Shown here piece after piece: positions 4,653 through 62,600 of a DNA stretch of 64,000 nucleotides. Location: positions 22,630,001 to 22,694,000 of the forward strand of contig OZ024740.1 of assembly GCA_964016885.1 (NCBI GenBank), read 5' to 3'. How positions within the stretch are numbered: position 1 is the stretch's first letter; each line of letters opens with the position of its first letter. The notes below the pieces were generated by a model. The model made no database searches, was not told the DNA's origin, and saw only the letters and a program-made list of their open reading frames with translations. The position numbers and the translations under genes were made by a program. This DNA comes from Eledone cirrhosa (taxonomy: Eukaryota).

Positions 4653-4725
<73 letters not shown>

Positions 4726-34730: not shown

Positions 34731-35246
34731 ATGACTTATTTTATTCAAACTATTTAAATACATTATCGAATGTATCTATATTTTCAAATGTCAGCAGACA
34801 CTGGTCAAGTATATGAATTATTAGAGACGTTAGAGCGTCGGATAGAACACCTTGCAGTAGTCTTTTTGAACCCTTTCGCTCTAAATTCAATCCTGGCCAG
34901 ATAGCCTTTGTCTTTCATCACTTTGAGATCGTTAAATTAAATACCACTCATGTAATGGGGAAATTTCGTTAATCCCCGTCCCCATCTCTTGGAAGTGGCC
35001 ACTGCCGACAGAATTGAGTCTTGTTAAACCAAATAACACTACCAAACAACGGAAAACCATTTTTGTATTTCACCACGATTTCATTACAAGTCCATTGCAT
35101 TTATCATAGTCACCAGTTGTCGTTTGCCATCTGGATAACGCAAAAAAGGAAGTCTGAAACTTGAGTAAGAATTAGCTGCTATATATAGGCGGTCCTATAC
35201 AGAGTATAGACGATAGGCGATTGAATGCAGAGTCTAGACGATAGGC

Positions 35247-38200
35247 CAGTGGTTCTCAACCTTTTTTTTGCCAACGGCACACCTTGGAACACCTGGCTAA
35301 ATATATATGAAAAATATTTGAACTTTACAAAATAAAAACATGGCAAGTCATACACGGTATACAACTGTAGACATAGACAAGTCATAGACGGTATACAACT
35401 GTAGACACAGACTAGTCATAGACGGCATACAACTGTAGACACAGACAAGTCATAGACGGTATACAACGTAGACACAGACTAGTCATAGACAGTATACAAC
35501 TGTAGACACAGACAAGTCATAGACGGTATACAACGTAGACACAGACTACTCATAGACGGTATACAACTGTAGACACAGACAAGTCATAGACAGTATACAA
35601 CTGTAGACACAGACTAGTCATAGACGGTATACAATTGTAGACACAGACTAGTCATAGACGGCATACAACTGTAGATACAGACTAGTCATAGACGGCATAC
35701 AACTGTAGACACATGCTAGTCATAGACGGTATACAACTGTAGACACAGGCTAGTCATAGACGGTATACAATTGTAGACACAGACTAGTCATAGACGGCAT
35801 ACAACTGTAGATACAGACTAGTCATAGACGGCATACAACTGTAGACACAGGCTAGTCATAGACGGTATACAACTGTAGACACAGGCTAGTCATAGACGGT
35901 ATACAATTGTAGACACAGACTAGTCATAGACGGCATACAACTGTAGATACAGACTAGTCATAGACGGCATACAACTGTAGACACAGGCTAGTCATAGACG
36001 GCATACAACTGTAGATACAGACTAGTCATAGACGGCATACAACTGTAGACACATGCTAGTCATAGACGGTATACAACTGTAGACACAGGCTAGTCATAGA
36101 CGGTATACAATTGTAGACACAGACTAGTCATAGACGGCATACAACTGTAGATACAGACTAGTCATAGACGGCATACAACTGTAGACACAGGCTAGTCATA
36201 GACGGTATACAACTGTAGACACAGGCTAGCCATAGACGGTATACAATTGTAGACACAGACTAGTCATAGACGGCATACAACTGTAGATACAGACTAGTCA
36301 TAGACGGCATACAACTGTAGACACAGGCTAGTCATAGACGGTATACAACTGTAGACACAGGCTAGTCATAGACGGTATACAATTGTAGACACAGACTAGT
36401 CATAGACGGCATACAACTGTAGATACAGACTAGTCATAGACGGCATACAACTGTAGATACAGGCTAGTCATAGACGGTATACAACTGTAGACACAGACTA
36501 GTCATAGACGGTATACAACTGTAGACACAGACAAGTCATAGACGGTATACAACTGTAGACACAGACTAGTCATAGACGGTATACAATTGTAGATACAGAC
36601 AAGTCATAGACGGCATACAACTGTAGACACAGACAAGTCATAGACGGCATACAACTGTAGACACAGACTAGTCGTAGACGGTATACAACCGTAGACATAG
36701 ACAAGTCATAGACGGCATACAACCGTAGACATATACAAGTCATAGACGGCATACAACTATAGACACAGATTAGTCATAGACGGTATACAACGGTAGACAC
36801 ACACTAGTCATAGACGACATACAACTGTAGACACAGACTAGTCATAGACGGCATACAACTGTAGACACAAACTAGTCATAGACGGCATACAACTATAGAC
36901 ACAGACTAGTCATAGACGGTATACAACGGTAGACACACACTAGTCATAGACGGCATACAACTATAGACACAGACTAGTCATAGACGGCATACAACTGTAG
37001 ACACAGACTAGTCATAGACGGCATACAACTGTAGACACAGACTAGTCATAGACGGTATACAACTGTAGACACAGACTAGTCATAGACGGCATACAACCGT
37101 AGACATAGACAAGTCATAGACGGCATACAACCGTAGACATAGACAAGTCATAGACGGCATACAACTATAGACACAGACTAGTCATAGACGGTATACAACG
37201 GTAGAGACACACTAGTCATAGACGGCATACAACGGTAGACACAGAATAGTCATAGACCGTTAACAACTGTAGACACAGACTAGTCATAGACGGTATACAA
37301 CCCTAGACACAGACTAGTCATAGACGGTATACAACGGTAGACACACACTAGTCATAGACGGCATACAACGGTAGACACAGACTAGTCATAGACCGTTAAC
37401 AACTGTAGACACAGACTAGTCATAGATGGTATACAACCATAGACACAGACTAGTCATAGATGGTATACAACGCTAGACACACACTAGTCATAGACGGCAT
37501 ACAACGGTAGACACAGACTAGTCATAAACGGTATACAACTGTAGACAGACTAGTTATAGATGGTATACAACCGTAGACACAGACTAGTCAAAGACGGTAT
37601 ACAACCCTAGACACAGACTAGTCATATACGGTATACAACCGCAGACACAGACTAGTCAAAGACGGTATACAACCGCAGACACAGACTAGTCAAAGACGGT
37701 ATACAATCGTAGACACAGACTAGTCATAGATGGTATACAACGGTAGACATACACAAGTCATAGACGGTATACAACGGGAGGCACAGACTAGTCATATACG
37801 GTATACAACGGAAGACACAGACAAGTCATAGACGGCATACAACCGTAGACACAGACTAATCATAGACCGTTAACAACCGTAGACGCAGACTAGTCATAGA
37901 TGGTATAAAACCGTAGACACATACTAGTCATAGACGGTATACAACTGTAGACACAGACTAGTCAAAGACGGTATACAACTGTAGACACAGACTAGTCATA
38001 GACGGCATACAACGATAGACACAGACTAGTCATAGACAGTATACAACTGTAGACACAGACTAGTCATAGACGGCATACAACTGTAGACATAGACTAGTCA
38101 AAACGGTATACAACTGTAGACATAGACTAGTCATATAGATGGTATACAACTGTAGACACAGACTAGTCATAGACGGTATACAACTGTAGATACAGACTAG

Positions 38201-41200
38201 TCATAGACGGCACAAAACTGTAGACACAGACTAGTCATAGACGGCACAAAACTGTAGACACAGACTAGTCATAGACGGCACAAATCTGTAGACATAGACT
38301 AGTCATAGACAGTATACACCCCTAGACACAGACTATTCATAGACGGCATACAATTGTAGACACAAACTAGTCCTGAACGGTATACATCGGTAGATACAGA
38401 AAAGTCATAGACGGTATACAACCGTAAGCACATACTAGTCATAGAAGGTATACAACTGTAGACACAGACGAGTCATAGACGGCATACAACTGTCGAGACT
38501 GACTCGTCATAGACGGCATACAACCGTAGACGTAGACAAGTCGTAGACGGCACACACCTGTAGACACAGACTAGTAATAGACGGTATACAACTGTAGACA
38601 CAAACTAGACATAGACGGCATACAACTGTAGACACAAAGTAGTCATATACGGTATACAACGGTAGACACAGACAAGTCATAGATGGTACAGAACTGTAGA
38701 CACAGACTAGTCATAGACGGCATACAACTGTAGACACAAACTAGTCATATACGGTATACAACGGTAGACACAGACAAGTCATAGATAGTACAGAACTGTA
38801 GACACAGACTAGTCATAGACGGCATACAACTGTAGCCATAGACAAGTCATAGACGGTATACAACCGTAGACACAGACTAGTCAAAGACGGTATACAACCG
38901 TAGACACAGACTAGTCATAGACGGTATACAACGGTAGACATAGACAAGTCATAGACGGTATAAAACGGGAGGCACAGACTAGTCATAGACGGTATACAAC
39001 GGTAGACACAGACAAGTCATAGACGGCATACAACGGTAGACACAGACTAATCATAGACCGTTAACAACTGTAGACACAGACTAGTCATAGACGGTATACA
39101 ACCGTAGACAAATACTAGTCATAGACGGTATACAACTGTAGACACAGACTAGTCGAAGACGGTATACAACCCTAGATACAGACTAGTCATAGACGGTATA
39201 CAACCCTAGACACAGACAAGTCATAGACGGTATACAACGGTAGACACAGACTAGTCATAGGCGGTATACGACTGTATACACAGACTAGTCAAAGACGGTA
39301 CAAAAATGTAGACAAAGACTAGTCATAGACGGTATACAACTATAGACACAGACTATTCATAGACGGCATAAAATTGTAGATACAGACTAGTCATAAACGG
39401 TATACAACTGTAGACAGACTAGTTATAGATGGTATACAACCGTAGACACAGACTAGTCATAGACGGTATACAATTGTAGATACAGACAAGTCATAGACGG
39501 CATACAACTTTTGACACAGACTAGTCATAGACGGCATACAAATGTAGACACAGACTAGTCATAGACGGCATACAACCGTAGACATAGACAAGTCATAGAC
39601 GGCATACAACTGTAGACACAGACTAGTCATAGACGGCATACAACTGTAGACACAGACTAGTAATAGACGGCATACAACTGTAGACACTAGTAATAGACGG
39701 CATACAACTGTAGACACAGACTAGTAATAGACGGTATACAACTGTAGACACAGGCTAGTCAAAGACGGTATACAACGGTAGACACACACTAGTCATCGAC
39801 GGTATACAACTGTAGACATAGACTAGTCATTCAAGGTATACAACGGTAGACACAGACTAGTCATAGACGGTATACAATTGTAGACATAGACTAGACATTC
39901 ACGGTATACAACGGTAGACACAGACTAGTCATAGACGGTATACAACTGTAGACACAGACTAGTCAAAGAGGGTATACAACGATAGACACAGACTAGTCAT
40001 ATACGGTATACAACGGTAGACACAGACTAGTCATAGACGGCATACAACCGTAGACACAGACAAGTCATAGAAGGCATAAAACTGTAGACACAGACAAGTC
40101 ATAGACGGCATACAACAGTAGACACAAACAAGTCATAGACGGTATAGAACTGTAGACAAAGACTAGTCATAGACGGCATACAACTGTAGATATAGACAAG
40201 TCATAGACGGTATAGAACCGTAGACACAGACAAGTCATAGACGGTATACAACCGCAGACACAGACTAGTCAAAGACGGTATACAACTTTAGACATAGACT
40301 AGTCAAAGACGGTATACAATCGTAGACACAGACTAGTCATAGACGGTATACAACGGTAGACATAGACAAGTCATAGACGGTATACAACGGATGGCACAGA
40401 CTAGTCATATACGGTATACAACGGTAGACACAGACAAGTCATAGACGGCATACAACCGTAGACACAGACTAATCATAGACCGTTAACAACTGTAGACACA
40501 GACTAGTCATAGATGGTATAAAACCGTAGACACATACTAGTCATAGACGGTATACAACTGTAGACACAGACTAGTCAAAGACGGTATACAACCCTAGTCA
40601 CAGACTAGTCAAAGACAGTATACAACTGTAGACACAGACAAGTCATAGACGGTATACAACTGTAGATACAGACTAGTCATAGACGGCACAAAACTGTAGA
40701 CACAGACTAGTCATAGACGGCATAAAACTGTAGACACAGACTAGTCATAGACGGCATACAACCGTAGACACAGACTAGTCATAGACGGTATACACCCCTA
40801 GACACAGACTATTCATAGACGGCATACAATTGTAGAGACAAACTAGTCCTGGACGGTATACATCGGTAGACACAGAAAAGTCATAGACGGTATACAACCG
40901 TAAGCACATACTAGTCATAGACGGTATACAACTGTAGACACAGACGAGTCATAGACGGCATACAACTGTCGAGACTGACTCGTCATAGACGGCATACAAC
41001 CGTAGACGTAGATAAGTCGTAGACGGCACACACCTGTAGACACAGACTAGTAATAGACGGTATACAACTGTAGACACAAACTAGTCATAGACGGCATACA
41101 ACTGTAGACACAAACTAGTCATATACGGTATACAACGGTAGACACAGACAAGTCATAGATGGTACAGAACTGTAGACACAGACTAGTCATAGACGGCATA

Positions 41201-44200
41201 CAACTGTAGACACAAACTAGTCATATACGGTATACAACGGTAGACACAGAAAAGTCATAGATGGTACAGAACTGTAGACACAGACTAGTCATAGACGGCA
41301 TACAACTGTAGCCATAGACAAGTCATAGACGGTATACAACGGTAGACATAGACAAGTCATAGACGGTATACAACGGTAGACACAGACTAATCATAGACCG
41401 TTAACAACTGTAGACACAGACTAGTCAAAGACGGTATACAACCCTAGATACAGACTAGTCATAGACGGTATACAACCCTAGACACAGACAAGACATAGAC
41501 GGTATACAACGGTAGACACAGACTAGTCATAGGCGGTATACAAGTGTATACACAGACTAGTCAAAGACGGTACAAAAATGTAGACAAAGACTAGTTATAG
41601 ACGGTATACAACTATAGACACAGACTAGTCATAGACGGCATACAACTGTAGATACAGACTAGTCATAAATGGTATACAACGGTAGACACAGACAAGTCAT
41701 AGACGGCATACAACCGTAGACACAGACTAATCATAGACCGTTAACAACTGTAGACACAGACTAGTCATAGATGGTATAAAACCGTAGACACATACTAGTC
41801 ATAGACGGTATACAACTGTAGACACCGACTAGTCAAAGACGGTATACAACCCTAGTCACAGACTAGTCAAAGACCGTATACAACTGTAGACACAGACAAG
41901 TCATAGACGGTATACAACTGTAGATACAGACTAGTCATAGACGGCACAAAACTGTAGACACAGACTAGTCATAGACGGCACAAAACTGTAGACACAGACT
42001 AGTCATAGACGGCATACAACCGTAGACACAGACTAGTCAAAGACGGTATACACCCCTAGACACAGACTATTCATAGACGGCATACAATTGTAGAGACAAA
42101 CTAGTCCTGGACGGTATACATCGGTAGACACAGAAAAGTCATAGACGGTATACAACCGTAAGCACATACTAGTCATAGACGGTATACAACTGTAGACACA
42201 GACGAGTCATAGACGGCATACAACTGTCGAGACTGACTCGTCATAGACGGCATACAACCGTAGACGTAGATAAGTCGTAGACGGCACACACCTGTAGACA
42301 CAGACTAGTAATAGACGGTATACAACTGTAGACACAAACTAGTCATAGACGGCATACAACTGTAGACACAAACTAGTCATATACGGTATACAACGGTAGA
42401 CACAGACAAGTCATAGATGGTACAGAACTGTAGACAGAGACTAGTCATAGACGGCATACAACTGTAGACACAAACTAGTCATATACGGTATACAACGGTA
42501 GACACAGACAAGTCATAGATGGTACAGAACTGTAGACACAGACTAGTCATAGACGGCATACAACTGTAGCCATACACAAGTCATAGACGGTATACAACGG
42601 TAGACATAGACAAGTCATAGACGGTATACAACGGCAGGCACAGACTAGTCATAGACGGTATACAACGGTAGACACAGACAAATCATAGACGGCATACAAC
42701 GGTAGACACAGACTAATCATAGACCGTTAACAACTGTAGACACAGACTAGTCAAAGACGGTATACAACCCTAGATACAGACTAGTCATAGACAGTATACA
42801 ACCCTAGACACAGACAAGTCATAGACGGTATACAACGGTAGACACAGACTAGTCATAGGCGGTATACAACTGTATACACAGACTAGTCAAAGACGGTACA
42901 AAAATGTAGACAAAGACTAGTTATAGACGGTATACAACTATAGACACAGACTAGTCATAGACGGCATACAACTGTAGATACAGACTAGTCATAAATGGTA
43001 TACAACTCTAGACAGACTAGTTATAGATGGTATACAACCGTAGACACAGACTAGTCATAGACGGTATACAATTGTAGATACAGACAAGTCATAGACGGCA
43101 TACAACTGTCGACACAGACTAGTCATAGACGGCATACAACTGTAGACACAGACTAGTCATAGACGGCATACAACCGTAGACATAGACAAGTCATAGACGG
43201 CATACAACTGTAGACACAGACTAGTCATACACCGCTAACAACTGTAGACACAGACTAGTCAAAGACGGTATACAACCCTAGACACAGACTAGTCATATAC
43301 GGTATACAACGGTAGACACAGACTAGTCATAGACGGCATACAACCGTAGACACAGACAAGTCATAGACGGCATAAAACTGTAGACACAGACAAGTCATAG
43401 ACGGCATACAACAGTAGACACAGACAAGTCATAGACGGTATAGAACTGTAGACAAAGACTAGTCATAGACGGCATACAACGGTAGACACAGACTAATCAT
43501 AGACCGTTAACAACTGTAGACACAGACTAGTCAAAGACGGTATACAACCCTAGATACAGACTAGTCATAGACAGTGTACAACCCTAGACACAGACAAGTC
43601 ATAGACGGTATACAACGGTAGACACAGACTAGTCATAGGCGGTATACAACTGTATACACAGACTAGTCAAAGACGGTATACAACCCTAGACACAGACTAG
43701 TCATATACGGTATACAACGGTAGACACAGACTAGTCATAGACGGCATACAACCGTAGACACAGACAAGTCATAGACGGCATAAAACTGTAGACACAGACA
43801 AGTCATAGACGGCATACAACAGTAGACACAGACAAGTCATAGACGGTATAGAACTGTAGACAAAGACTAGTCATAGACGGCATACAACGGTAGACACAGA
43901 CTAATCATAGACCGTTAACAACTGTAGACACAGACTAGTCAAAGACGGTATACAACCCTAGATACAGACTAGTCATAGACAGTATACAACCCTAGACACA
44001 GACAAGTCATAGACGGTATACAACGGTAGACACAGACTAGTCATAGGCGGTATACAACTGTATACACAGACTAGTCAAAGACGGTACAAAAATGTAGACA
44101 AAGACTAGTTATAGACGGTATACAACGCTAGACACACACTAGTCATAGACGGCATACAACGGTAGACACAGACTAGTCATAAACGGTATACAACTGTAGA

Positions 44201-47200
44201 CAGACTAGTTATAGATGGTATACAACCGTAGACACAGACTAGTCAAAGACGGTATACAACCCTAGACACAGACTAGTCATATACGGTATACAACCGCAGA
44301 CACAGACTAGTCAAAGACGGTATACAACCGCAGACACAGACTAGTCAAAGACGGTATACAATCGTAGACACAGACTAGTCATAGATGGTATACAACGGTA
44401 GACATACACAAGTCATAGACGGTATACAACGGGAGGCACAGACTAGTCATATACGGTATACAACGGAAGACACAGACAAGTCATAGACGGCATACAACCG
44501 TAGACACAGACTAATCATAGACCGTTAACAACCGTAGACGCAGACTAGTCATAGATGGTATAAAACCGTAGACACATACTAGTCATAGACGGTATACAAC
44601 TGTAGACACAGACTAGTCAAAGACGGTATACAACTGTAGACACAGACTAGTCATAGACGGCATACAACGATAGACACAGACTAGTCATAGACAGTATACA
44701 ACTGTAGACACAGACTAGTCATAGACGGCATACAACTGTAGACATAGACTAGTCAAAACGGTATACAACTGTAGACATAGACTAGTCATATAGATGGTAT
44801 ACAACTGTAGACACAGACTAGTCATAGACGGTATACAACTGTAGATACAGACTAGTCATAGACGGCACAAAACTGTAGACACAGACTAGTCATAGACGGC
44901 ACAAAACTGTAGACACAGACTAGTCATAGACGGCACAAATCTGTAGACATAGACTAGTCATAGACAGTATACACCCCTAGACACAGACTATTCATAGACG
45001 GCATACAATTGTAGACACAAACTAGTCCTGAACGGTATACATCGGTAGATACAGAAAAGTCATAGACGGTATACAACCGTAAGCACATACTAGTCATAGA
45101 AGGTATACAACTGTAGACACAGACGAGTCATAGACGGCATACAACTGTCGAGACTGACTCGTCATAGACGGCATACAACCGTAGACGTAGACAAGTCGTA
45201 GACGGCACACACCTGTAGACACAGACTAGTAATAGACGGTATACAACTGTAGACACAAACTAGACATAGACGGCATACAACTGTAGACACAAAGTAGTCA
45301 TATACGGTATACAACGGTAGACACAGACAAGTCATAGATGGTACAGAACTGTAGACACAGACTAGTCATAGACGGCATACAACTGTAGACACAAACTAGT
45401 CATATACGGTATACAACGGTAGACACAGACAAGTCATAGATAGTACAGAACTGTAGACACAGACTAGTCATAGACGGCATACAACTGTAGCCATAGACAA
45501 GTCATAGACGGTATACAACCGTAGACACAGACTAGTCAAAGACGGTATACAACCGTAGACACAGACTAGTCATAGACGGTATACAACGGTAGACATAGAC
45601 AAGTCATAGACGGTATAAAACGGGAGGCACAGACTAGTCATAGACGGTATACAACGGTAGACACAGACAAGTCATAGACGGCATACAACGGTAGACACAG
45701 ACTAATCATAGACCGTTAACAACTGTAGACACAGACTAGTCATAGACGGTATACAACCGTAGACAAATACTAGTCATAGACGGTATACAACTGTAGACAC
45801 AGACTAGTCGAAGACGGTATACAACCCTAGATACAGACTAGTCATAGACGGTATACAACCCTAGACACAGACAAGTCATAGACGGTATACAACGGTAGAC
45901 ACAGACTAGTCATAGGCGGTATACGACTGTATACACAGACTAGTCAAAGACGGTACAAAAATGTAGACAAAGACTAGTCATAGACGGTATACAACTATAG
46001 ACACAGACTATTCATAGACGGCATAAAATTGTAGATACAGACTAGTCATAAACGGTATACAACTGTAGACAGACTAGTTATAGATGGTATACAACCGTAG
46101 ACACAGACTAGTCATAGACGGTATACAATTGTAGATACAGACAAGTCATAGACGGCATACAACTTTTGACACAGACTAGTCATAGACGGCATACAAATGT
46201 AGACACAGACTAGTCATAGACGGCATACAACCGTAGACATAGACAAGTCATAGACGGCATACAACTGTAGACACAGACTAGTCATAGACGGCATACAACT
46301 GTAGACACAGACTAGTAATAGACGGCATACAACTGTAGACACTAGTAATAGACGGCATACAACTGTAGACACAGACTAGTAATAGACGGTATACAACTGT
46401 AGACACAGGCTAGTCAAAGACGGTATACAACGGTAGACACACACTAGTCATCGACGGTATACAACTGTAGACATAGACTAGTCATTCAAGGTATACAACG
46501 GTAGACACAGACTAGTCATAGACGGTATACAATTGTAGACATAGACTAGACATTCACGGTATACAACGGTAGACACAGACTAGTCATAGACGGTATACAA
46601 CTGTAGACACAGACTAGTCAAAGAGGGTATACAACGATAGACACAGACTAGTCATATACGGTATACAACGGTAGACACAGACTAGTCATAGACGGCATAC
46701 AACCGTAGACACAGACAAGTCATAGAAGGCATAAAACTGTAGACACAGACAAGTCATAGACGGCATACAACAGTAGACACAAACAAGTCATAGACGGTAT
46801 AGAACTGTAGACAAAGACTAGTCATAGACGGCATACAACTGTAGATATAGACAAGTCATAGACGGTATAGAACCGTAGACACAGACAAGTCATAGACGGT
46901 ATACAACCGCAGACACAGACTAGTCAAAGACGGTATACAACTTTAGACATAGACTAGTCAAAGACGGTATACAATCGTAGACACAGACTAGTCATAGACG
47001 GTATACAACGGTAGACATAGACAAGTCATAGACGGTATACAACGGATGGCACAGACTAGTCATATACGGTATACAACGGTAGACACAGACAAGTCATAGA
47101 CGGCATACAACCGTAGACACAGACTAATCATAGACCGTTAACAACTGTAGACACAGACTAGTCATAGATGGTATAAAACCGTAGACACATACTAGTCATA

Positions 47201-50200
47201 GACGGTATACAACTGTAGACACAGACTAGTCAAAGACGGTATACAACCCTAGTCACAGACTAGTCAAAGACAGTATACAACTGTAGACACAGACAAGTCA
47301 TAGACGGTATACAACTGTAGATACAGACTAGTCATAGACGGCACAAAACTGTAGACACAGACTAGTCATAGACGGCATAAAACTGTAGACACAGACTAGT
47401 CATAGACGGCATACAACCGTAGACACAGACTAGTCATAGACGGTATACACCCCTAGACACAGACTATTCATAGACGGCATACAATTGTAGAGACAAACTA
47501 GTCCTGGACGGTATACATCGGTAGACACAGAAAAGTCATAGACGGTATACAACCGTAAGCACATACTAGTCATAGACGGTATACAACTGTAGACACAGAC
47601 GAGTCATAGACGGCATACAACTGTCGAGACTGACTCGTCATAGACGGCATACAACCGTAGACGTAGATAAGTCGTAGACGGCACACACCTGTAGACACAG
47701 ACTAGTAATAGACGGTATACAACTGTAGACACAAACTAGTCATAGACGGCATACAACTGTAGACACAAACTAGTCATATACGGTATACAACGGTAGACAC
47801 AGACAAGTCATAGATGGTACAGAACTGTAGACACAGACTAGTCATAGACGGCATACAACTGTAGACACAAACTAGTCATATACGGTATACAACGGTAGAC
47901 ACAGAAAAGTCATAGATGGTACAGAACTGTAGACACAGACTAGTCATAGACGGCATACAACTGTAGCCATAGACAAGTCATAGACGGTATACAACGGTAG
48001 ACATAGACAAGTCATAGACGGTATACAACGGTAGACACAGACTAATCATAGACCGTTAACAACTGTAGACACAGACTAGTCAAAGACGGTATACAACCCT
48101 AGATACAGACTAGTCATAGACGGTATACAACCCTAGACACAGACAAGACATAGACGGTATACAACGGTAGACACAGACTAGTCATAGGCGGTATACAAGT
48201 GTATACACAGACTAGTCAAAGACGGTACAAAAATGTAGACAAAGACTAGTTATAGACGGTATACAACTATAGACACAGACTAGTCATAGACGGCATACAA
48301 CTGTAGATACAGACTAGTCATAAATGGTATACAACGGTAGACACAGACAAGTCATAGACGGCATACAACCGTAGACACAGACTAATCATAGACCGTTAAC
48401 AACTGTAGACACAGACTAGTCATAGATGGTATAAAACCGTAGACACATACTAGTCATAGACGGTATACAACTGTAGACACCGACTAGTCAAAGACGGTAT
48501 ACAACCCTAGTCACAGACTAGTCAAAGACCGTATACAACTGTAGACACAGACAAGTCATAGACGGTATACAACTGTAGATACAGACTAGTCATAGACGGC
48601 ACAAAACTGTAGACACAGACTAGTCATAGACGGCACAAAACTGTAGACACAGACTAGTCATAGACGGCATACAACCGTAGACACAGACTAGTCAAAGACG
48701 GTATACACCCCTAGACACAGACTATTCATAGACGGCATACAATTGTAGAGACAAACTAGTCCTGGACGGTATACATCGGTAGACACAGAAAAGTCATAGA
48801 CGGTATACAACCGTAAGCACATACTAGTCATAGACGGTATACAACTGTAGACACAGACGAGTCATAGACGGCATACAACTGTCGAGACTGACTCGTCATA
48901 GACGGCATACAACCGTAGACGTAGATAAGTCGTAGACGGCACACACCTGTAGACACAGACTAGTAATAGACGGTATACAACTGTAGACACAAACTAGTCA
49001 TAGACGGCATACAACTGTAGACACAAACTAGTCATATACGGTATACAACGGTAGACACAGACAAGTCATAGATGGTACAGAACTGTAGACAGAGACTAGT
49101 CATAGACGGCATACAACTGTAGACACAAACTAGTCATATACGGTATACAACGGTAGACACAGACAAGTCATAGATGGTACAGAACTGTAGACACAGACTA
49201 GTCATAGACGGCATACAACTGTAGCCATACACAAGTCATAGACGGTATACAACGGTAGACATAGACAAGTCATAGACGGTATACAACGGCAGGCACAGAC
49301 TAGTCATAGACGGTATACAACGGTAGACACAGACAAATCATAGACGGCATACAACGGTAGACACAGACTAATCATAGACCGTTAACAACTGTAGACACAG
49401 ACTAGTCAAAGACGGTATACAACCCTAGATACAGACTAGTCATAGACAGTATACAACCCTAGACACAGACAAGTCATAGACGGTATACAACGGTAGACAC
49501 AGACTAGTCATAGGCGGTATACAACTGTATACACAGACTAGTCAAAGACGGTACAAAAATGTAGACAAAGACTAGTTATAGACGGTATACAACTATAGAC
49601 ACAGACTAGTCATAGACGGCATACAACTGTAGATACAGACTAGTCATAAATGGTATACAACTCTAGACAGACTAGTTATAGATGGTATACAACCGTAGAC
49701 ACAGACTAGTCATAGACGGTATACAATTGTAGATACAGACAAGTCATAGACGGCATACAACTGTCGACACAGACTAGTCATAGACGGCATACAACTGTAG
49801 ACACAGACTAGTCATAGACGGCATACAACCGTAGACATAGACAAGTCATAGACGGCATACAACTGTAGACACAGACTAGTCATACACCGCTAACAACTGT
49901 AGACACAGACTAGTCAAAGACGGTATACAACCCTAGACACAGACTAGTCATATACGGTATACAACGGTAGACACAGACTAGTCATAGACGGCATACAACC
50001 GTAGACACAGACAAGTCATAGACGGCATAAAACTGTAGACACAGACAAGTCATAGACGGCATACAACAGTAGACACAGACAAGTCATAGACGGTATAGAA
50101 CTGTAGACAAAGACTAGTCATAGACGGCATACAACTGTAGATATAGACAAGTCATAGACGGTATAGAACCGTAGACACAGACAAGTCATAGACGGTATAC

Positions 50201-53200
50201 AACCGCAGACACAGACTAGTCAAAGACGGTATACAACTGTAGACATAGACTAGTCAAAGACGGTATACAATCGTAGACACAGACTAGTCATAGACGGTAT
50301 ACAACGGTAGACATAGACAAGTCATAGACGGTATACAACGGGAGGCACAGACTAGTCATATACGGTATACAACGGTAGACACAGACAAGTCATAGACGGC
50401 ATACAACCGTAGACACAGACTAATCATAGACCGTTAACAACTGTAGACACAGACAAGTCATAGACGGTATAGAACCGTAGACACAGACAAGTCATAGACG
50501 GTATACAACCGCAGACACAGACTAGTCAAAGACGGTATACAACTGTAGACATAGACTAGTCAAAGACGGTATACAATCGTAGACACAGACTAGTCATAGA
50601 CGATATACAACGGTAGACATAGACAAGTCATAGACGGTATACAACGGGAGGCACAGACTAGTCATATACGGTATACAACTGTAGACACAGACTAGTCAAA
50701 GACGGTATACAAACCTAGTCACAGACTATTCAAAGACCGTATACAACTGTAGACACAGACAAGTCATAGACGGTATACAACTGTAGATACAGACTAGTCA
50801 TAGACGGCACAAAACTGTAGACACAGACTAGTCATACACGGCACAAAACTGTAGACACAGACTAGTCATAGACGGCATACAACCGTAGACACAGACTAGT
50901 CATAGACGGTATACACCCCTAGACAGACTATTCATAGACGGCATACAATTGTAGAGACAAACTAGTCCTGGACGGTATACATCGGTAGATACAGAAAAGT
51001 CATAGACGGTATACAACCGTAAGCACATACTAGTCATAGACTGTATACAACTGTAGAGACAGACGAGTCATAGACGGCATACAACTGTCGAGACTGACTC
51101 GTCATAGACGGCATACAACCGTAGACGTAGATAAGTCGTAGACGGCACACACCTGTAGACACAGACTAGTAATAGACGGTATACAACGGTAGACACAGAC
51201 AAGTCATAGATGGTACAGAACTGTAGACACAGACTAGTCATAGACGGCATACAACTGTAGCCATAGACAAGTCATAGACGGTATACAACCGTAGATACAG
51301 ACTAGTCAAAGACGGTATACAACCGTAGACACAGACTTGTCATAGACGGTATACAACGGTAGACATAGACAAGTCATAGACGGTATACAACGGGAGGCAC
51401 AGACTAGTCATAGACGGTATACAACGGTAGACACAGACAAGTCATAGACGGCATACAACGGTAGACACAGACTAATCATAGACCGTTAACAACTGTAGAC
51501 ACAGACTAGTCATAGACGGTATACAACCGTAGACAAATACTAGTCATAGACGGTATACCACTGTAGACACAGACTAGTCAAAGACGGTATACAACCCTAG
51601 ATACAGACAAGTCATAGACGGTATACAACCCTACACACAGACAAGTCATAGACGGTATACAACGGTAGACACAGACTAGTCATATGCGGTATACAACTGT
51701 ATACACAGACTAGTCAAAGACGGTACAAAAATGTAGACAAAGACTAGTCATAGACGGTATACAACTATAGACACAGACTAGTCATAGACGGCATACAACT
51801 ATAGACACAGACTATTCATAGACGGCATACAACTGTAGATACAGACTAGTCATAAACGGTATACAACTCTAGACAGACTAGTTATAGATGGTATACAACC
51901 GTAGACAGAGACTAGTCATAGACGGTATACAATTGTAGATACAGACAAGTCATAGACGGCATACAACTGTCGACACAGACTAGTCATAGACGGTATACAA
52001 CGGTAGACACACGCTAGTCATCGACGGTATACAACTGTAGACACTGACTAGTCAAAGACGGTATACAACCCTAGACACAGACTAGTCATATACGGTATAC
52101 AACGGTAGACACAGACTAGTCATAGACGGCATACAACTATAGACACAAACTATTCATAGACGGCATACAACCGTAGACACAGACAAGTCATAGACGGCAT
52201 AAAACTTTAGACACAGACAAGTCATCGACGGCATACAACAGTAGACACAGACAAGTCATAGACGGTATAGAACTGTAGACAAAGACTAGTCATAGACGGC
52301 ATACAACTGTAGATATAGACAAGTCATAGGCGGTATAGAACCGTAGACACAGACAAGTCATAGACGGTATACAACCGCAGACACAGACTAGTCAAAGACG
52401 GTATACAACTGTAGACATAGACTAGTCATAGACGGCATACAATCGTAGACATAGACAAGTCATAGACGGTATACAACGGGAGGTACAGACTAGTCATAGA
52501 CGGTATACAAATGTAGACACAGACAAGTCATAGCCAGTATACAAATGTAGACACAGACAAGTCATAGACGGTATACAACTGTAGACACAGACTAGGCATA
52601 GACGACATACAACTGTAGACATAGACAAGTCATAGACGCCATACAACTGTATACATAGACAAGTCATAGACGGCATACAACTGTAGACATAGACAAGTCA
52701 TAGACGGTATACAACTGTAGACACAGACTAGGTATAGACGACATACAACTGTAAACTTAGACAAGTCATAGACGACATACAACTGTAGACACAGACTAGT
52801 CATAGACGGTATACAACTGTAGACACAGACTAGGCATAGACGACATACAACTGTAGACACAGACTAGTCATAGACGGTATACAACTGTAGACACAGACAA
52901 GTCATAGACGCTATACAACCGTAAGCACATACTAGTCATAGACGGTATACAACTGTAGACACAGACAAGTCGTAGACGGCACACACCTGTAGACACAGAC
53001 TAGTCATAGACGGTATACAACTGTAGACACAGACTAGTCATAGACGGTATACAACGGTAGACACAAACTAGTCATAGACGGTATACAACTGTAGACACAA
53101 ACTAGTCATATACGGTATACAACGGTAGACACAGACTAGTCATAGATGGTACAGAACTGTAGACCCAGACTAGTCCTGGACGGCATACAACTGTAGCCAT

Positions 53201-56200
53201 AGACAAGTCATAGACGGTATACAACCGTAGACACAGACTAGTGAAAGACGGTATACAACCGTAGACACAGACTAGTCATAGACGGTATACAACGGTAGAC
53301 ACAAACTAGTCATAGACGGCATTCAACTGCAGACACAGACTACTCAAAGACGGTATACAACTGTAGACACAGACAAGTCATAGACGGCATACAACGATAG
53401 ACACAGACCAGTCATAGACGGTATACAACGGTATACACAGACAAGTCATAGACGGTATACAACGGTAGACACAGACTAGTCATAGACAGTATACAACTGT
53501 AGACACAGACTAGTCATAGACGGCATACAACTGTAGACACAGACTAGTAATAGACGGTATACAACGGTAAACACAGACTAGTCATAGACAGTATACAACT
53601 GTAGACACAGACTAGTCATAGACGGCATACAACTGTAGACACAGACTAGTAATAGACGGTATACAACGGTAGACACAGACTAGTCATAGACGGCATACAA
53701 CCGTAGACATAGACAAGTCATAGACGGCATACAATGTAGACACAGACTAGTAATAGACGGTATACAACGGTAGACACAGACTGGTCATAGACGGTATACA
53801 ACTGTAGACATAGACTAGTCATAGACGGTATACAACTGTAGACCAAGACTAGTCATATACGGTATACAACTGTAGACACAGACAAGTCATAGACGGTATA
53901 CATCGGTAGATATAGACAAGTCATAGACGGCATACAACTGTAGACATAGACTAGTCATTGACGGTATACAACGGTAGACACAGACTAGTCATAGACGGTA
54001 TACAACTGTAGACATAGACTAGTCATAGATGGTATACAACTGTAGACACAGACTAGTCATATACGGTATACAACTGTAGAAACAGACAAGTCATAGACGG
54101 TATACAACGGTAGACATAGACAAGTGATAGACTGTATACAATGGTAGACACAGACTAGTCATAGACGGTATACAACGGTAGACACTGACAAGTCATAGAC
54201 GGCATACAACTGTAGACACAGACTAGTCAAAGACGGTATACAACTGTAGACACAGACTAGTCATAGACGGTATACAACGGTAGACACAGCCTAGTCATAG
54301 ATGGTATACAACTGTAGACACAGACTAGTCATAGACGGCATACAACGGTCGACACAGACTAGTCATAGACGGTATACAACTGTAGACACTGACTAGTCAT
54401 AGACGGCATACAATGGTCGACACAGACTAGTCATAGACGGCATACGTCTGTAGACACAGACTAGTCATAGACGGCATAAAACTGTAGACACAGACTACTC
54501 ATAGACGGCATACAAATGTAGTCACAGACAAGTCATAGACGGTATAGAACTGTAGACAAAGACTAGTCATATATGGCATTCAACTGTAGACACAGACTAG
54601 TCAAAGACGGTATACAACCGTAGACACAGACTAGTCATAGACGGCATACAACTGTAGACATAGACAAGTCATAGACGCTATAAACCCTAGACACAGACTA
54701 GTCATAGACGGTATACAACCGTAGACACAGACTAGTCAAAGACGGTATACAACAGAAGACATAGACAAGTCATAGACGGTTTACAACCGTAGACATAGAC
54801 TAGTCATAGACGGCATACAACTGTAGACACAAACTAGTCATAGACGATATACAACGGTAGACACAGACAAGTCATAGACGGCACACAACTGTAGACACAG
54901 ACAAGTCATAGACGGTATACAACCGTAGACAGAGACTAGTCATATACGGTATATAACCGTAGCCACAGACTAGTCATAGGTGGTATAAAACCCTAGACAC
55001 ATACTAGTCATAGAAGGTATACAACCCTAGACATAGACTAGTCATAGACGGTATACAACCCTAGACACAGGCTAGTCATAGACGGTATACAACCGTAAAC
55101 ACAAACTAGTCATAGACGGTATACAATGCTAGACACAAACTAGTCATAGACGGTATACAACGGAAGACACAGACTAGTCATAGACGGTATACAACCCTAG
55201 ACACAGACTAGTCATAGACGGTATACAACCGTAGATACAGACTAGTCATAGACGGTATACAAGCCTAGACACAGACTAGTCATAGACGGTATACAACCCG
55301 AGACACAGACTAGTCATAGACGGTATACAACCCTAGACACAGACTAGTCATAGACGGTATACAACGGCAGACACAGACAAGTCATAGACTGTATACAACG
55401 GTAGACACAGACTAGTAATAGACGGTATACAACGGTAAACACAGACTAGTCATAGACAGTATACAACTGTAGACACAGACTAGTCATAGACGGCATACAA
55501 CTGTAGACACAGACTAGTAATAGACGGTATACAACGGTAGACACAGACTAGTCATAGACGGCATACAACCGTAGACATAGACAAGTCATAGACGGCATAC
55601 AATGTAGACACAGACTAGTAATAGACGGTATACAACGGTAGACACAGACTGGTCATAGACGGTATACAACTGTAGACATAGACTAGTCATAGACGGTATA
55701 CAACTGTAGACCAAGACTAGTCATATACGGTATACAACTGTAGACACAGACAAGTCATAGACGGTATACATCGGTAGATATAGACAAGTCATAGACAGCA
55801 TACAACTGTAGACATAGACTAGTCATTGACGGTATACAACGGTAGACACAGACTAGTCATAGACGGTATACAACTGTAGACATAGACTAGTCATAGATGG
55901 TATACAACTGTAGACACAGACTAGTCATATACGGTATACAACTGTAGAAATAGACAAGTCATAGACGGTATACAACGGTAGACATAGACAAGTGATAGAC
56001 TGTATACAATGGTAGACACAGACTAGTCATAGACGGTATACAACGGTAGACACTGACAAGTCATAGACGGCATACAACTGTAGACACAGACTAGTCAAAG
56101 ACGGTATACAACTGTAGACACAGACTAGTCATAGACGGTATACAACGGTAGACACAGCCTAGTCATAGATGGTATACAACTGTAGACACAGACTAGTCAT

Positions 56201-59200
56201 AGACGGCATACAACGGTCGACACAGACTAGTCATAGACGGTATACAACTGTAGACACTGACTAGTCATAGACGGCATACAATGGTCGACACAGACTAGTC
56301 ATAGACGGCATACGTCTGTAGACACAGACTAGTCATAGACGGCATAAAACTGTAGACACAGACTACTCATAGACGGCATACAAATGTAGTCACAGACAAG
56401 TCATAGACGGTATAGAACTGTAGACAAAGACTAGTCATATATGGCATTCAACTGTAGACACAGACTAGTCAAAGACGGTATACAACCGTAGACACAGACT
56501 AGTCATAGACGGCATACAACTGTAGACATAGACAAGTCATAGACGCTATAAACCCTAGACACAGACTAGTCATAGACGGTATACAACCGTAGACACAGAC
56601 TAGTCAAAGACGGTATACAACAGAAGACATAGACAAGTCATAGACGGTTTACAACCGTAGACATAGACTAGTCATAGACGGCATACAACTGTAGACACAA
56701 ACTAGTCATAGACGATATACAACGGTAGACACAGACAAGTCATAGACGGCACACAACTGTAGACACAGACAAGTCATAGACGGTATACAACCGTAGACAG
56801 AGACTAGTCATATACGGTATATAACCGTAGCCACAGACTAGTCATAGGTGGTATAAAACCCTAGACACATACTAGTCATAGAAGGTATACAACCCTAGAC
56901 ATAGACTAGTCATAGACGGTATACAACCCTAGACACAGGCTAGTCATAGACGGTATACAACCGTAAACACAAACTAGGCATAGACGGTATACAATGCTAG
57001 ACACAAACTAGTCATAGACGGTATACAACGGAAGACACAGACTAGTCATAGACGGTATACAACCCTAGACACAGACTAGTCATAGACGGTATACAACCGT
57101 AGATACAGACTAGTCATAGACGGTATACAAGCCTAGACACAGACTAGTCATAGACGGTATACAACCCGAGACACAGACTAGTCATAGACGGTATACAACC
57201 CTAGACACAGACTAGTCATAGACGGTATACAACGGCAGACACAGACAAGTCATAGACTGTATACAACGGTAGACACAGACTAGTAATAGACGGTATACAA
57301 CGGTAAACACAGACTAGTCATAGACAGTATACAACTGTAGACACAGACTAGTCATAGACGGCATACAACTGTAGACACAGACTAGTAATAGACGGTATAC
57401 AACGGTAGACACAGACTAGTCATAGACGGCATACAACCGTAGACATAGACAAGTCATAGACGGCATACAATGTAGACACAGACTAGTAATAGACGGTATA
57501 CAACGGTAGACACAGACTGGTCATAGACGGTATACAACTGTAGACATAGACTAGTCATAGACGGTATACAACTGTAGACCAAGACTAGTCATATACGGTA
57601 TACAACTGTAGACACAGACAAGTCATAGACGGTATACATCGGTAGATATAGACAAGTCATAGACGGCATACAACTGTAGACATAGACTAGTCATTGACGG
57701 TATACAACGGTAGACACAGACTAGTCATAGACGGTATACAACTGTAGACATAGACTAGTCATAGATGGTATACAACTGTAGACACAGACTAGTCATATAC
57801 GGTATACAACTGTAGAAACAGACAAGTCATAGACGGTATACAACGGTAGACATAGACAAGTGATAGACTGTATACAATGGTAGACACAGACTAGTCATAG
57901 ACGGTATACAACGGTAGACACTGACAAGTCATAGACGGCATACAACTGTAGACACAGACTAGTCAAAGACGGTATACAACTGTAGACACAGACTAGTCAT
58001 AGACGGTATACAACGGTAGACACAGCCTAGTCATAGATGGTATACAACTGTAGACACAGACTAGTCATAGACGGCATACAACGGTCGACACAGACTAGTC
58101 ATAGACGGTATACAACTGTAGACACTGACTAGTCATAGACGGCATACAATGGTCGACACAGACTAGTCATAGACGGCATACGTCTGTAGACACAGACTAG
58201 TCATAGACGGCATAAAACTGTAGACACAGACTACTCATAGACGGCATACAAATGTAGTCACAGACAAGTCATAGACGGTATAGAACTGTAGACAAAGACT
58301 AGTCATATATGGCATTCAACTGTAGACATAGACTAGTCAAAGACGGTATACAACCGTTGACACAGACTAGTCATAGACGGCATACAACTGTAGACATAGA
58401 CAAGTCATAGACGCTATAAACCCTAGACACAGACTAGTCATAGACGGTATACAACCGTAGACACAGACTAGTCAAAGACGGTATACAACAGAAGACATAG
58501 ACAAGTCATAGACGGTTTACAACCGTAGACATAGACTAGTCATAGACGGCATACAACTGTAGACACAAACTAGTCATAGACGATATACAACGGTAGACAC
58601 AGACAAGTCATAGACGGCACACAACTGTAGACACAGACAAGTCATAGACGGTATACAACCGTAGACAGAGACTAGTCATATACGGTATATAACCGTAGCC
58701 ACAGACTAGTCATAGGTGGTATAAAACCCTAGACACATACTAGTCATAGAAGGTATACAACCCTAGACATAGACTAGTCATAGACGGTATACAACCCTAG
58801 ACACAGGCTAGTCATAGACGGTATACAACCGTAAAAACAAACTAGTCATAGACGGTATACAATGCTAGACACAAACTAGTCATAGACGGTATACAACGGA
58901 AGACACAGACTAGTCATAGACGGTATACAACCCTAGACACAGACTAGTCATAGACGGTATACAACCGTAGATACAGACTAGTCATAGACGGTATACAAGC
59001 CTAGACACAGACTAGTCATAGACGGTATACAACCCGAGACACAGACTAGTCATAGACGGTATACAACCCTAGACACAGACTAGTCATAGACGGTATACAA
59101 CGGCAGACACAGACAAGTCATAGACTGTATACAACGGTAGACACAGACTAGTCATAGTCGGTATGCAACCCTAGACACAGACTAGTCATATACGGTATAC

Positions 59201-59644
59201 AACCCTAGACACAGACAAGTCATAGACGGTATACAACCCTAGACACAGACTAGTCATAGACGGTATACAACGGTAGACACAGACTAGTCATAGACGGTAT
59301 ACAACCCTAGACACAGACTAGTCATAGACGGTATACAACCCTAGACACAGACTAGTCATAGACGGTATACAACCGTAGACACAGACTATTCATAGACGGT
59401 ATACAACCGTAGACACAGACTATTCATAGACGGTATACAACCCTAGACACAGACTAGTCATAGACGGTATAAAACCCTAGACACAGACAAGTCATAGACA
59501 CATAGAATGACTGAAACTAAATAAAGAAAAACACAGCTATGAACTTACTTTCGAATTTAATAAGTGTGCCGTTCAAAATCTCGCGGAACACATAGGAAGA
59601 TCTCGCGGCAGAGTGTGCCACGACACACTGGTTGAGAATCACTG
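35247..59644. mobile_element. Non-autonomous hAT (Charlie/Buster-type) DNA transposon, 24.4 kb, interior filled by satellite
   Basis: TIRs CAGTGGTTCTCAACC (35247-35261) and GGTTGAGAATCACTG (59630-59644), 14/15 match. 8-bp TSD CGATAGGC at 35239-35246 and 59645-59652 with a central TA. Subterminal cggcacac/gtgtgcc motifs at both ends. Confidence 0.9.
35345..59500. repeat. 34-bp satellite, ~710 monomers, with higher-order repeats
   Basis: Consensus gtcatagacggYatacaacYgtagacacagacWa; period 34 (e.g. 35401 and 35435). Confidence 0.97.
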
Positions 59645-59659
59645 CGATAGGCGATCGAA

Positions 59660-62600
59660 TGCAGAGTATAGACGTTCAACTGCAGTGTATAGGTGGTAGA
59701 TGTAGAGTATAGACGGTTAAGTACAGTGTATAGGTGGTAGATGTAGAGTATAGACGGTCACCTGCAGTGTATATGTGGTAGATGTAGAGTATAGACGGTC
59801 AACTACAGTGTATAGGTGGTAGATGTAGAGTATAAAAGGTCATCTACAGTGTATAGGTGGTAGATGTAGAGTATAGACGGTCAACTGCAGTGTATAGGTG
59901 GTAGATGTAGAGTATAGACGGTCAACTACAGTGTATAGGTGGTAGATGTAGAGTATAGACGGTCAACTACAGTGTATAGGTGGTAGATGTAGAGTATAGA
60001 CGGTCATCTACAGTGTATAGGTGGTAGATGTAGAGTATAGACGGTCAACTGCAGTGTATAGGTGGTAGATGTAGAGTATAGACGGTCAACTACAGTGTAT
60101 AGGTGGTAGATGTAGAGTATAGTCGGTCAACTACAGTGTATAGGCGGTAGATGTAGAGTATAGACGGTCAACTACAGTGTATAGGTGGTAGATGTAGAGT
60201 ATAGACGGTCAACTACAGTGTATAGGCGGTAGATGTAGAGTATAGACGGTCAACTACAGTGTATAGGTGGTAGATGTAGAGTATAGAGGGTCAATTGCAG
60301 TGTATAGGTGGTAGATGTAGAGTATAGACGGTCAACTACAGTGTATAAGTGGTAGATGTAGAGTATAGACGGTCAACTACAGTGTATAGGCGGTAGATGT
60401 AGAGTATTGACGGTCAACTACAGTGTATAGGTGGTAGATGTAGAGTATAGACGGTCAACTACAGTGTATAGGTGGTAGATGTAGAGTATAGAGGGTCAAT
60501 TGCAGTGTATAGGTGGTAGATGTAGAGTATAGACGGTCAACTACAGTGTATAAGTGGTAGATGTAGAGTATAGACGGTCAACTACAGTGTATAGGCGGTA
60601 GATGTAGAGTATAGACGGCCAACTACAGTGTATATGTGGTAGATGTAGAGTATAGACGGTCAACTACAGTGTATAGGTGGTAGATGTAGAATATAGACGG
60701 TCAACTACAGTGTATAGATGGTAGATGTAGAGTATAGACGGTCAACTGAAGTGTATAAGTGGTAGATGTAGATTATAGACGGTCAACTACAGTGTATAGG
60801 TGGTAGATGTAGATTATAGACGGTCAACAACAGTGTATAGGTGGTAGATGTAGAGTATAGACGGTCAACTCCAGTGTATAGGTGGTAGATGTAGAGTATA
60901 GACGGTCACCTGCAGTGTATAGGTGGTAGATGTAGAGTATAGACGGTCAACTACAGTGTATAGGTGTTAGATGTAGAGTATAGACGGTCAGCTACAGTGT
61001 ATAGGTGGTAGATGTAGAGTATAGACGGTCACCTGCAGTGTATAGGTGGTAGATGTAGAGTATAGACGGTCAACTGCAGTGTATAGGTGGTAGATGTAGT
61101 GTATAGATGGTCAACTACAGTGTATAGGTGGTAGATGTAGAATATAGACGGTCTCCTGCAGTGTATAGGTGGTAGATGTAGAGTATAGACGGTCAACTAC
61201 AGTGTATAGGTGGTAGATGTAGTGTATAGACGGTCAACTGCCGTGTATAGGTGGTAGACGTAGAGTATAGACGGTCAACTACAGTGTATAGGTGGCAGAT
61301 GTAGAGTATAGACGGTCACCTGCAGTGTATAGGTGGTAGATGTAGAGTATAGACGGTCAACTACAGTGTATAGGTGGTAGATGTAGAGTATAAAAGGTCA
61401 TCTACAGTGTATAGGTGGTAGATGTAGAGTATAGACGGTCAACTGCAGTGTATAGGTGGTAGATGTAGAGTATAGACGGTCAACTACAGTGTATAGGTGG
61501 TAGATGTAGAGTATAGACGGTCAACTACAGTGTATAGGTGGTAGATGTAGAGTATAGACGGTCATCTACAGTGTATAGGTGGTAGATGTAGAGTATAGAC
61601 GGTCAACTGCAGTGTATAGGTGGTAGATGTAGAGTATAGACGGTCAACTACAGTGTATAGGCGGTAGATGTAGAGTATAGTCGGTCAACTACAGTGTATA
61701 GGCGGTAGATGTAGAGTATAGACGGTCAACTACAGTGTATAGGTGGTAGATGTAGAGTATAGACGGTCAACTACAGTGTATAGGCGGTAGATGTAGAGTA
61801 TAGACGGTCAACTACAGTGTATAGGTGGTAGATGTAGAGTATAGAGGGTCAATTGCAGTGTATAGGTGGTAGATGTAGAGTATAGACGGTCAACTACAGT
61901 GTATAAGTGGTAGATGTAGAGTATAGACGGTCAACTACAGTGTATAGGCGGTAGATGTAGAGTATAGACGGTCAACTACAGTGTATAGGTGGTAGATGTA
62001 GAGTATAGACGGTCAACTACAGTGTATAGGTGGTAGATGTAGAGTATAGAGGGTCAATTGCAGTGTATAGGTGGTAGATGTAGAGTATAGACGGTCAACT
62101 ACAGTGTATAAGTGGTAGATGTAGAGTATAGACGGTCAACTACAGTGTATAGGCGGTAGATGTAGAGTATAGACGGCCAACTACAGTGTATATGTGGTAG
62201 ATGTAGAGTATAGACGGTCAACTACAGTGTATAGGTGGTAGATGTAGAATATAGACGGTCAACTACAGTGTATAGATGGTAGATGTAGAGTATAGACGGT
62301 CAACTGAAGTGTATAAGTGGTAGATGTAGATTATAGACGGTCAACTACAGTGTATAGGTGGTAGATGTAGATTATAGACGGTCAACAACAGTGTATAGGT
62401 GGTAGATGTAGAGTATAGACGGTCAACTCCAGTGTATAGGTGGTAGATGTAGAGTATAGACGGTCACCTGCAGTGTATAGGTGGTAGATGTAGAGTATAG
62501 ACGGTCAACTACAGTGTATAGGTGTTAGATGTAGAGTATAGACGGTCAGCTACAGTGTATAGGTGGTAGATGTAGAGTATAGACGGTCACCTGCAGTGTA

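Follow-up and report, generated by a model that had tools for sequence, protein, structure and literature searches.

Satellite growth from MITE-internal repeats is an established route, one described case being miDNA4 (PMC12628747, PMC9659126, PMC12054243), a MITE of Xenopus tropicalis (Scalvenzi and Pollet 2014, as described in PMC12628747). This and the other published systems are cited here from the available parts of the papers. The longest element-associated array of CgiSat01 comprises 89 monomers (PMC8268682), and DTC84 holds up to five core repeats (PMC3879986). For hAT transposons, TIRs of 5-27 bp and an overall length of under about 4 kb have been given, and the TSD consensus of the Buster group was defined as nnnTAnnn (PMC3517528). 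A centromere atlas preprint (10.64898/2026.09.17.752431) presents satellites derived from transposon sub-sequences, with no hAT case in its available part, and the word satellite does not occur in the available text of an octopus repeat annotation (PMC13282606).

Here, we investigated a window of Eledone cirrhosa DNA, i.e., the whole 64,000-bp stretch that was analysed (G000:C1:22,630,001-22,694,000), with searches of the 3.0-Gb assembly. We give a probability of roughly 85% to the reading that the long 34-bp array in this window is one Buster-type hAT insertion, in which the native 34-bp unit has grown in place after insertion to ~700 copies. It is likewise very probable that growth started from the seed or from a short array.

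Structure of the window element

The element and its surroundings consist of the following features.

35185..35246, plus strand: 28-bp flank repeat, 2.2 copies; degenerate left edge of the host 41-bp satellite
35239..35246, plus strand: left target-site duplication (TSD) CGATAGGC (nnnTAnnn)
35247..35261, plus strand: left TIR, equal to the 3' end of the parent (parent transposase on the minus strand)
35262..35345, plus strand: left subterminal segment with a 20-bp deletion compared to the family, one GGCACAC motif gone
35346..59499, plus strand: 34-bp tandem array, 711 copies, 221 distinct monomers
37462..50135, plus strand: internal duplication, 37462-43480 being the same as 44117-50135 (6,019 bp, 0 mismatches)
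53533..59152, plus strand: three copies of a 1,868-bp (55-monomer) higher-order unit, 99.8% identical
59500..59629, plus strand: right unique segment with no transposase left; parent 3' UTR and parent 5' subterminal region, joined by internal deletion
59630..59644, minus strand: right TIR
59645..59652, plus strand: right target-site duplication CGATAGGC
59653..64000, plus strand: host 41-bp satellite outside the element, extending to G000:C1:22,751,990 (~62 kb)

The element is 24,398 bp long, and no N is present in the window. As proposed in the initial annotation, the array is bounded by short unique sequence (99 bp on the left and 145 bp on the right) and by TIRs of 15 bp each, which match at 14/15 positions. 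The single TIR mismatch recurs in other family copies and is a family trait, and thus each end of the window element equals the family form. The TIR length falls within the hAT range. The overall length lies above the hAT norm because the array supplies the excess. Compared with the family, the left end differs by 1 substitution in the 98 bases compared and the right end by 11 in 155. The 20-bp deletion has removed one of two left subterminal GGCACAC motifs, which are putative transposase-binding sites. The deletion in the right segment was also found in short copies with right ends of 140-158 bp.

Coding capacity is absent from the window element, and the parent ends are joined by internal deletion, as in MITEs and deletion derivatives. 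By its sequence, the window element is best classed as a transposase-less deletion derivative of a Buster-type hAT. It descends from a MITE-sized element and at 24.4 kb is no longer a MITE; it is a footprint-bounded satellite, not an intact and probably not a mobile transposon. The previous description of an intact element was not supported, in view of the missing transposase and of the 20-bp left deletion with its motif loss.

The insertion has left a clear footprint. The two copies of CGATAGGC are identical at 8/8 positions, which agrees with the perfect nnnTAnnn duplication described at first. When left TSDs of 66 family copies were compared across elements, an 8/8 match occurred in 7 of 2145 pairs, and the position-weight probability of CGATAGGC is 1.3e-4. 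Moreover, excision of the element with one TSD completes the third unit of the 28-bp flank repeat, with 93% identity between the left and right flanks over 30 bp, so that the restoration of this repeat, also proposed at first, was confirmed.

An assembly artefact, by which two element ends would have been joined across a collapsed or inflated repeat, is scarcely credible. It could account for the 6,019 bp of array that are duplicated with 0 mismatches, and the right junction had no coverage in 4/4 read runs, which consist of short-read contigs and RAD reads only. However, a misjoin cannot be the source of an 8/8 TSD and of a flank repeat unit whose two parts, on either side of the element, fit together. 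Furthermore, 8/8 TSDs are present in four of the six large two-ended elements, and the left junction is present in read contigs. Indeed, short-read contigs of two runs, which may be from the assembly's own sample, match the left flank-TSD-TIR junction with 0 and 1 differing letters; they extend 29 bases past the junction, the bar for bridging being 31 bases. End pairing and array length are those of the assembly alone. The 6,019-bp identical duplicate would result either from a very recent unequal exchange or from an assembly artefact, and array length may be inflated; perhaps, at odds well short of even, it is 17.5 instead of 24.2 kb, which would leave the conclusion unchanged. No empty-site allele was seen at either junction in contigs or RAD reads, whose coverage there is too thin to count.

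The insertion point lies in the third unit of the 28-bp repeat, at the ragged margin of the 41-bp satellite. Recognition of the 28-bp repeat as the margin of this separate satellite, which runs for ~62 kb rightward, is an addition to the earlier account. All matches (640/640) of an exact 24-mer of the 41-bp satellite fell at this locus in an assembly-wide exact-pattern count, by which the satellite can be regarded as private to the locus. We considered whether the left flank could be the end of another 41-mer-carrying element and rejected this, as positions 34700-35238 showed matches of 68-85% only; these belong to a short old repeat at least 280 bp from the junction. Derivation of the 41-mer from the 34-mer was also rejected, with 21/25 columns aligned in an alignment picked by eye and a score reached by 49/2000 shuffles. 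When 10-kb flanks of 7 large and 15 small copies were compared for satellite richness, a one-sided Mann-Whitney test gave a p value of 0.03, and flanks above 5% satellite were found for 3/7 large versus 4/15 small copies (Fisher p 0.63).

The transposon family and its seed unit

Each end of the window element is a dispersed repeat, with 212 and 176 candidates, of which the best 40 each were scored. We examined 72 family copies that were picked by end, monomer and transposase searches and that represent a sample and not a census. Among the 50 two-ended copies, TSDs matched at 8/8 positions in 27, at 7/8 in 14, at 6/8 in 5 and less well in 4; thus, the 8-bp TSD expected of a hAT was found at 7/8 or better in 41/50. 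Of 66 left TSDs, 63 have TA at positions 4-5, which is the Buster consensus.

Short copies of the family measure 178-433 bp and near-full-length parent copies 3.2-3.5 kb. These parent copies and several one-ended copies contain a broken transposase on the minus strand and have TIRs as in the window element. We detected PF05699 (hAT dimerisation domain) at 25.4 bits, with a cut-off of 21.4, in one of four transposase fragments; the remaining three matched PF05699 or PF14291 below the cut-off, and three shorter fragments of 86-114 aa had no Pfam or PDB match. The fragments are 72-73% identical to proteins of 614-615 aa, one of them from Armadillidium vulgare. Lower in the match list follow ZBED5-like and SCAND3-like proteins, which we take to be Buster-clade protein names. 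By the TSD consensus, the parent is assignable to the Buster-type hATs, and its transposase may belong to the Buster clade. The hAT insertion of Buster/Charlie type suggested initially is supported.

We then asked how much of the transposase is left. When the 150 best of 1545 candidate matches were scored, 20 matches of at least 76% identity were assigned to this family, and none of these 20 had a full-length open frame. More distant Buster families in the assembly have open frames of 540-605 aa. The hAT family of the window element now looks inactive. Competence of the ends for mobilisation, as claimed before, was not borne out, given the 0/20 cognate full-length frames and the loss of one left motif. 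As for an autonomous partner with the same TIRs, which the initial annotation proposed to look for, transposase-bearing copies were found, and all those seen are broken.

A single 34-mer is present in the parent, made up of AGTCATAGAC and 24 further bases, and another AGTCATAGAC comes after it. This seed is located ~100 bp beyond the stop codon of the transposase, at a distance of 115-118 bp inward from the 3' TIR. Among the 11 transposase-bearing copies in which the seed region was read, a single unit was found in 9, 3 units in one and 35 in another, and some copies (e.g., L022) are reduced to a single 10-mer AGTCATAGAC. The presence of 10-bp repeats around the unit, together with the copies reduced to one 10-mer, suggests that both expansion and loss pass through the 10-bp repeat. 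The array of the window element likewise starts and stops with this 10-bp direct repeat, the last copy of which is at 59490-59499. Moreover, the common monomer variants A32G and T34A are identical to the bases that precede the first 10-mer, as would be expected if they were templated by slippage. The notion that the 34-mer is native to the element and not an invading satellite is supported, and the check in the initial annotation of whether MITE copies carry the monomer came out in the affirmative.

Array sizes and probable growth in place

The left junction was used in an exact search that is blind to array length and that gave 38 matches; three of the 38 unit counts were derived from junction spacing. 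At most one unit was present in 18 copies, and 2-99 units were present in 13, 100-999 in 5 and more than 1000 in 2, so that 20/38 copies bear arrays. Overall, the number of units per copy ranges from 0 to ~15,700, at unrelated sites with TSDs of their own. Seven arrays of at least 19 kb were found, of which six keep both ends.

Window locus: 24,398 bp, TSD 8/8
C1:415.17 Mb: 25,804 bp, TSD 7/8
C1:246.54 Mb: 34,713 bp, damaged TIR, TSD 3/8
C1:437.13 Mb: 40,762 bp, TSD 8/8
C2:11,878,111-11,999,981: 121,871 bp, TSD 8/8
C28:105,030,657-105,565,526: 534,870 bp, ~15,700 units, TSD 8/8
C2:21.03 Mb: ~19 kb, left end only

The TSD matches at 7/8 or 8/8 positions in 5/6 of the two-ended arrays of this size. 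The 122-kb, 535-kb and 35-kb arrays were read in part; 180 of the 535 kb of the C28 element were read, and every piece consisted of same-strand 34-mer without N. A private variant, G25C, occurs at 11-26% in all 17 inner 5-10-kb blocks of this element. Within the family, which reaches 535 kb, the window locus is of intermediate size.

In a further search with the monomer only, for which 150 of 456 matches were listed, all 10 array loci had an element end on at least one side, and none of the listed loci was a free-standing 34-mer array. As to whether all 34-mer arrays are TIR-bounded, both TIRs are present at 7 of the 10 listed loci. Arrays open and close in register with the 10-bp repeat of the parent. 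These three observations stand against a scenario in which a pre-existing satellite entered or converted the copies, by ectopic recombination of a free 34-mer array with single-unit elements, and we consider such an invasion or conversion highly unlikely. It would be consistent with the variant pair C13T+C21T, which is common to about ten unlinked arrays on different backbones, and with two internal-deletion junctions that are distributed in a pattern no simple tree explains, since one deletion junction of the copy at C2:11.88 Mb recurs at C20:35.41 Mb and a second one at C5:128.0 Mb. The sharing of C13T+C21T requires array-bearing master copies or inter-locus conversion.

The order of monomers was then compared among 30 arrays. 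In the 435 pairs, the top match was a run of 3 monomers that carry 3 informative changes, and one other pair had 5 monomers in common with 2 informative changes. The window array had no more than 3 monomers or 2 informative changes in common with any other array; compared with itself, it showed a repeated run of 175 monomers with 64 changes. Since each array has a monomer order of its own, we prefer growth in place as the reading; the large arrays each contain nested internal duplications as well. Of the two options in the initial annotation, growth in situ is hence favoured by the private monomer order, and the transport of a whole satellite block as cargo is disfavoured, as no order is shared.

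The divergence data were examined as well. The interior of the window array is built by nested duplications of 100%, 99.8% and 99.3% identity, which are younger than the ~4% divergence of the family ends; it is a long head-to-tail array with higher-order structure, as in satellites. Its monomers are 10.3% divergent from the seed, and 5.5% without seven recurrent sites. Across arrays, divergence outside the seven recurrent sites is 0-6.4%, similar to the end divergence, which averages 3.6% in array copies and 4.1% in single-unit copies. End and array divergence showed a weak correlation that is not significant (rho 0.35, p 0.09, 24 loci), which, like the larger divergence of the window monomers, counts against growth in place. 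Large arrays occur on several internal-deletion backbones, and one-unit copies are found on some of these as well.

Some arrays appear to have moved. The copies at C5:41.92 Mb and C5:44.02 Mb have unrelated flanks and different TSDs, yet both contain a private multi-copy subterminal array with a 45-bp unit and agree in right-end variants and in their mixture of monomer variants. Such sister pairs suggest that short arrays did travel and that short arrays alone have moved. Segmental duplication as the source of shared variants was rejected: 37 flanks of 22 array loci showed short dispersed-repeat matches, and neither these flanks nor those of one further pair gave a flank match for the named sister pairs.

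These sister pairs also bear on the cargo reading, which assumes that the array reached its size within the element at another site, from which a Buster transposase brought the complete block of 24 kb or more here. It would fit the family-form TIRs and perfect TSD at the window locus, the apparent movement of short arrays, the larger divergence of the window monomers compared to the window ends and the long open frames of the distant Buster families. We nevertheless give it very little credence. No common monomer order was seen in the 435 array pairs, and none of the 20 cognate transposase matches had a full-length frame among the 150 best of 1545 candidates scored. Perfect TSDs were found in 27/50 copies of all sizes, and a perfect TSD is therefore no mark of a recent jump. 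Moreover, the related Buster AnBT suffers a strong size penalty, as its activity falls by ~90% when the cargo is enlarged from 1.6 to 8.5 kb (PMC12637253), and the existence of a 535-kb member makes size-independent transport implausible. Since cut-and-paste leaves no donor, the absence of a sister array alone does not decide against one late large-block jump. The broader proposal, that Buster transposase moved arrays already tens to hundreds of kb long, up to a 535-kb transposon, survives because cut-and-paste leaves no donor and short arrays appear to have moved; we hold it to be very improbable as well.

Growth in place after insertion, the reading that we prefer, could have proceeded as follows. 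The first duplication, and the zero-unit deletions too, would go back to slippage or unequal exchange involving the pair of 10-bp repeats. During the active phase of the family, short-array copies would still have been mobilised. Once inserted, arrays would have grown by unequal exchange into higher-order blocks until they were too long to move. The TIRs and the TSD would have been spared because recombination stayed within the array interior.

Comparison with known systems

The birth and pace of long satellites are usually untestable because the starting point is lost. In this family, a known seed reached many unrelated sites in one short burst (copies differ by ~4% from the family majority), and the start state, the limits and the TSD are still visible at each site. 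At least 20 arrays of 6 to ~15,700 units thus amount to a natural experiment, run in replicate, on how arrays grow, become homogenised and form higher-order repeats, and it allows a direct comparison of orthologous alleles. The value lies more in the whole family than in the window locus. The retention of transposon ends by long arrays runs counter to expectation, and repeat annotation will break up each element of this kind into a pair of MITE pieces plus an apparently unrelated satellite. In the literature covered, which is mainly non-subscription and hence weak evidence of absence, we found no TIR- and TSD-intact DNA-transposon copies of such size. New here are the hAT/Buster host, the seed in a transposase-bearing parent, the series from 0 to ~15,700 units and the retention of TIRs and TSDs up to half a megabase.

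Among Buster elements, Mar of Drosophila willistoni (PMC3517528) and AnBuster (PMC12637253) resemble this family in the 8-bp nnnTAnnn TSD, TIRs of 11-16 bp, a transposase of ~600 aa and the formation of MITEs by internal deletion. In contrast, their elements are <4 kb, and an internal satellite is not described in the available parts of these papers. AnBuster comes from the genus of our best named protein match (Armadillidium).

The Ogre satellites of Lathyrus sativus (PMC7004042) are similar in that short, transposon-native tandem repeats 3' of the coding region now and then expand in place to long satellite arrays. However, Ogre is a plant LTR retrotransposon whose seeds are already short arrays, with nanopore evidence and a pericentromeric bias, and TSD-bounded single elements of such size are not reported in the available text. 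In molluscs, the conserved ends of the Helitron/Helentron CgiSat01/Cg170 of Crassostrea gigas (PMC8268682) form a cassette for a variable number of central tandem repeats, and DTC84 of Donax trunculus (PMC3879986) has element ends that enclose variable tandem repeats. Unlike the present family, CgiSat01 and DTC84 are of the rolling-circle or Pearl type and, as far as described in these sources, have no 8-bp TSD by which an insertion could be dated or delimited.

The closest system is miDNA4, which, like the family described here, is a non-autonomous TIR element with a satellite motif that is single or in a variable array and with adjoining short direct repeats. In both cases, the same motif occurs singly and in arrays within one TIR family, here with 0 to ~15,700 units, and for miDNA4, too, long arrays were proposed to stop moving and then to grow by recombination. 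In contrast, miDNA4 is a Tc1/mariner element of 300-600 bp, whereas the element here is a hAT of the Buster type. Its model captures the repeat from outside, whereas here the seed was read in a transposase-bearing parent. Moreover, long miDNA4 arrays would lose their inverted repeats according to that model, whereas arrays of 24-535 kb keep TIRs and TSD here, and 6/7 arrays of at least 19 kb are two-ended. Thus, the family of the window element works like miDNA4, yet it is not a member of it.

Arrays within copies of the family

A 34-mer array of 535 kb was found on contig C28 within a single element, whose target site duplication (TSD) matched at 8 of 8 positions.

C28:105,030,657-105,565,526: 34-mer array (sequence pieces L124, L104, L090-L094 and L163-L172)

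Probes of C28:104.5-105.0 Mb revealed satellites of 69, 16, 26 and 47 bp, distinct from the 34-mer. Because of these other satellites, the region around the 535-kb array may be pericentromeric.

Two further array-bearing copies on C28, with 29 units at 79.25 Mb (L015/L138) and 35 units at 71.9 Mb (L218/L147), have their end variants and left TSD in common, and no homology was observed between their flanks over 700 bp. They form the second pair for which transposition of a short array is a candidate explanation.

Tandem arrays were also formed from other parts of the element: its subterminal regions hold repeats of 45 bp and 30 bp, and a repeat of 12 bp lies close to the transposase stop.

L135:7057-7504, L038:542-856, L099:3481-3610 and the right end of L100: tandem arrays other than the 34-mer

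Since these parts form arrays too, the Buster-type hAT element is repeat-prone at several places.

Neighboring repeats

The element in the window is adjoined by a 41-bp satellite, found at this locus alone, which amounts to ~62 kb in all and shows a weak likeness to the 34-mer (49/2000 shuffles). Past it, at C1:22.76-22.90 Mb, we observed more satellites, of 42, 48 and 34 bp, the last unrelated to the 34-mer of the element.

Window 59653-64000 and sequence pieces L031, L032, L102, L103, L140 and L141: 41-bp satellite
Window 4719-6958: two 470-bp tandem arrays side by side (98-99% matches), with copy numbers of 2.1 and 2.7
Window 31977-32106 and 32856-32940: a 34-bp repeat distinct from that of the element, present in inverted orientation at two sites separated by ~750 bp, which may be the termini of a further element
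L128:3417-3570: 154-bp element of another hAT-like family with a different TIR, 1.9 kb past the C4:246 Mb array

Relatives of the transposase

Among 150 scored of 1545 candidates, more distant Buster-like transposases (43-48% identity), which may be intact, had open frames of 540-605 amino acids at C3:222,475,518, C4:6,752,846 and C19:28,260,686. The decayed transposase of the family (L153, L145) was 72-73% identical to two proteins (P0001, P0002), one from the isopod Armadillidium vulgare and the other unnamed. The next-best protein matches reached at most 59%, far below these values, and this gap hints at horizontal transfer of the transposase.
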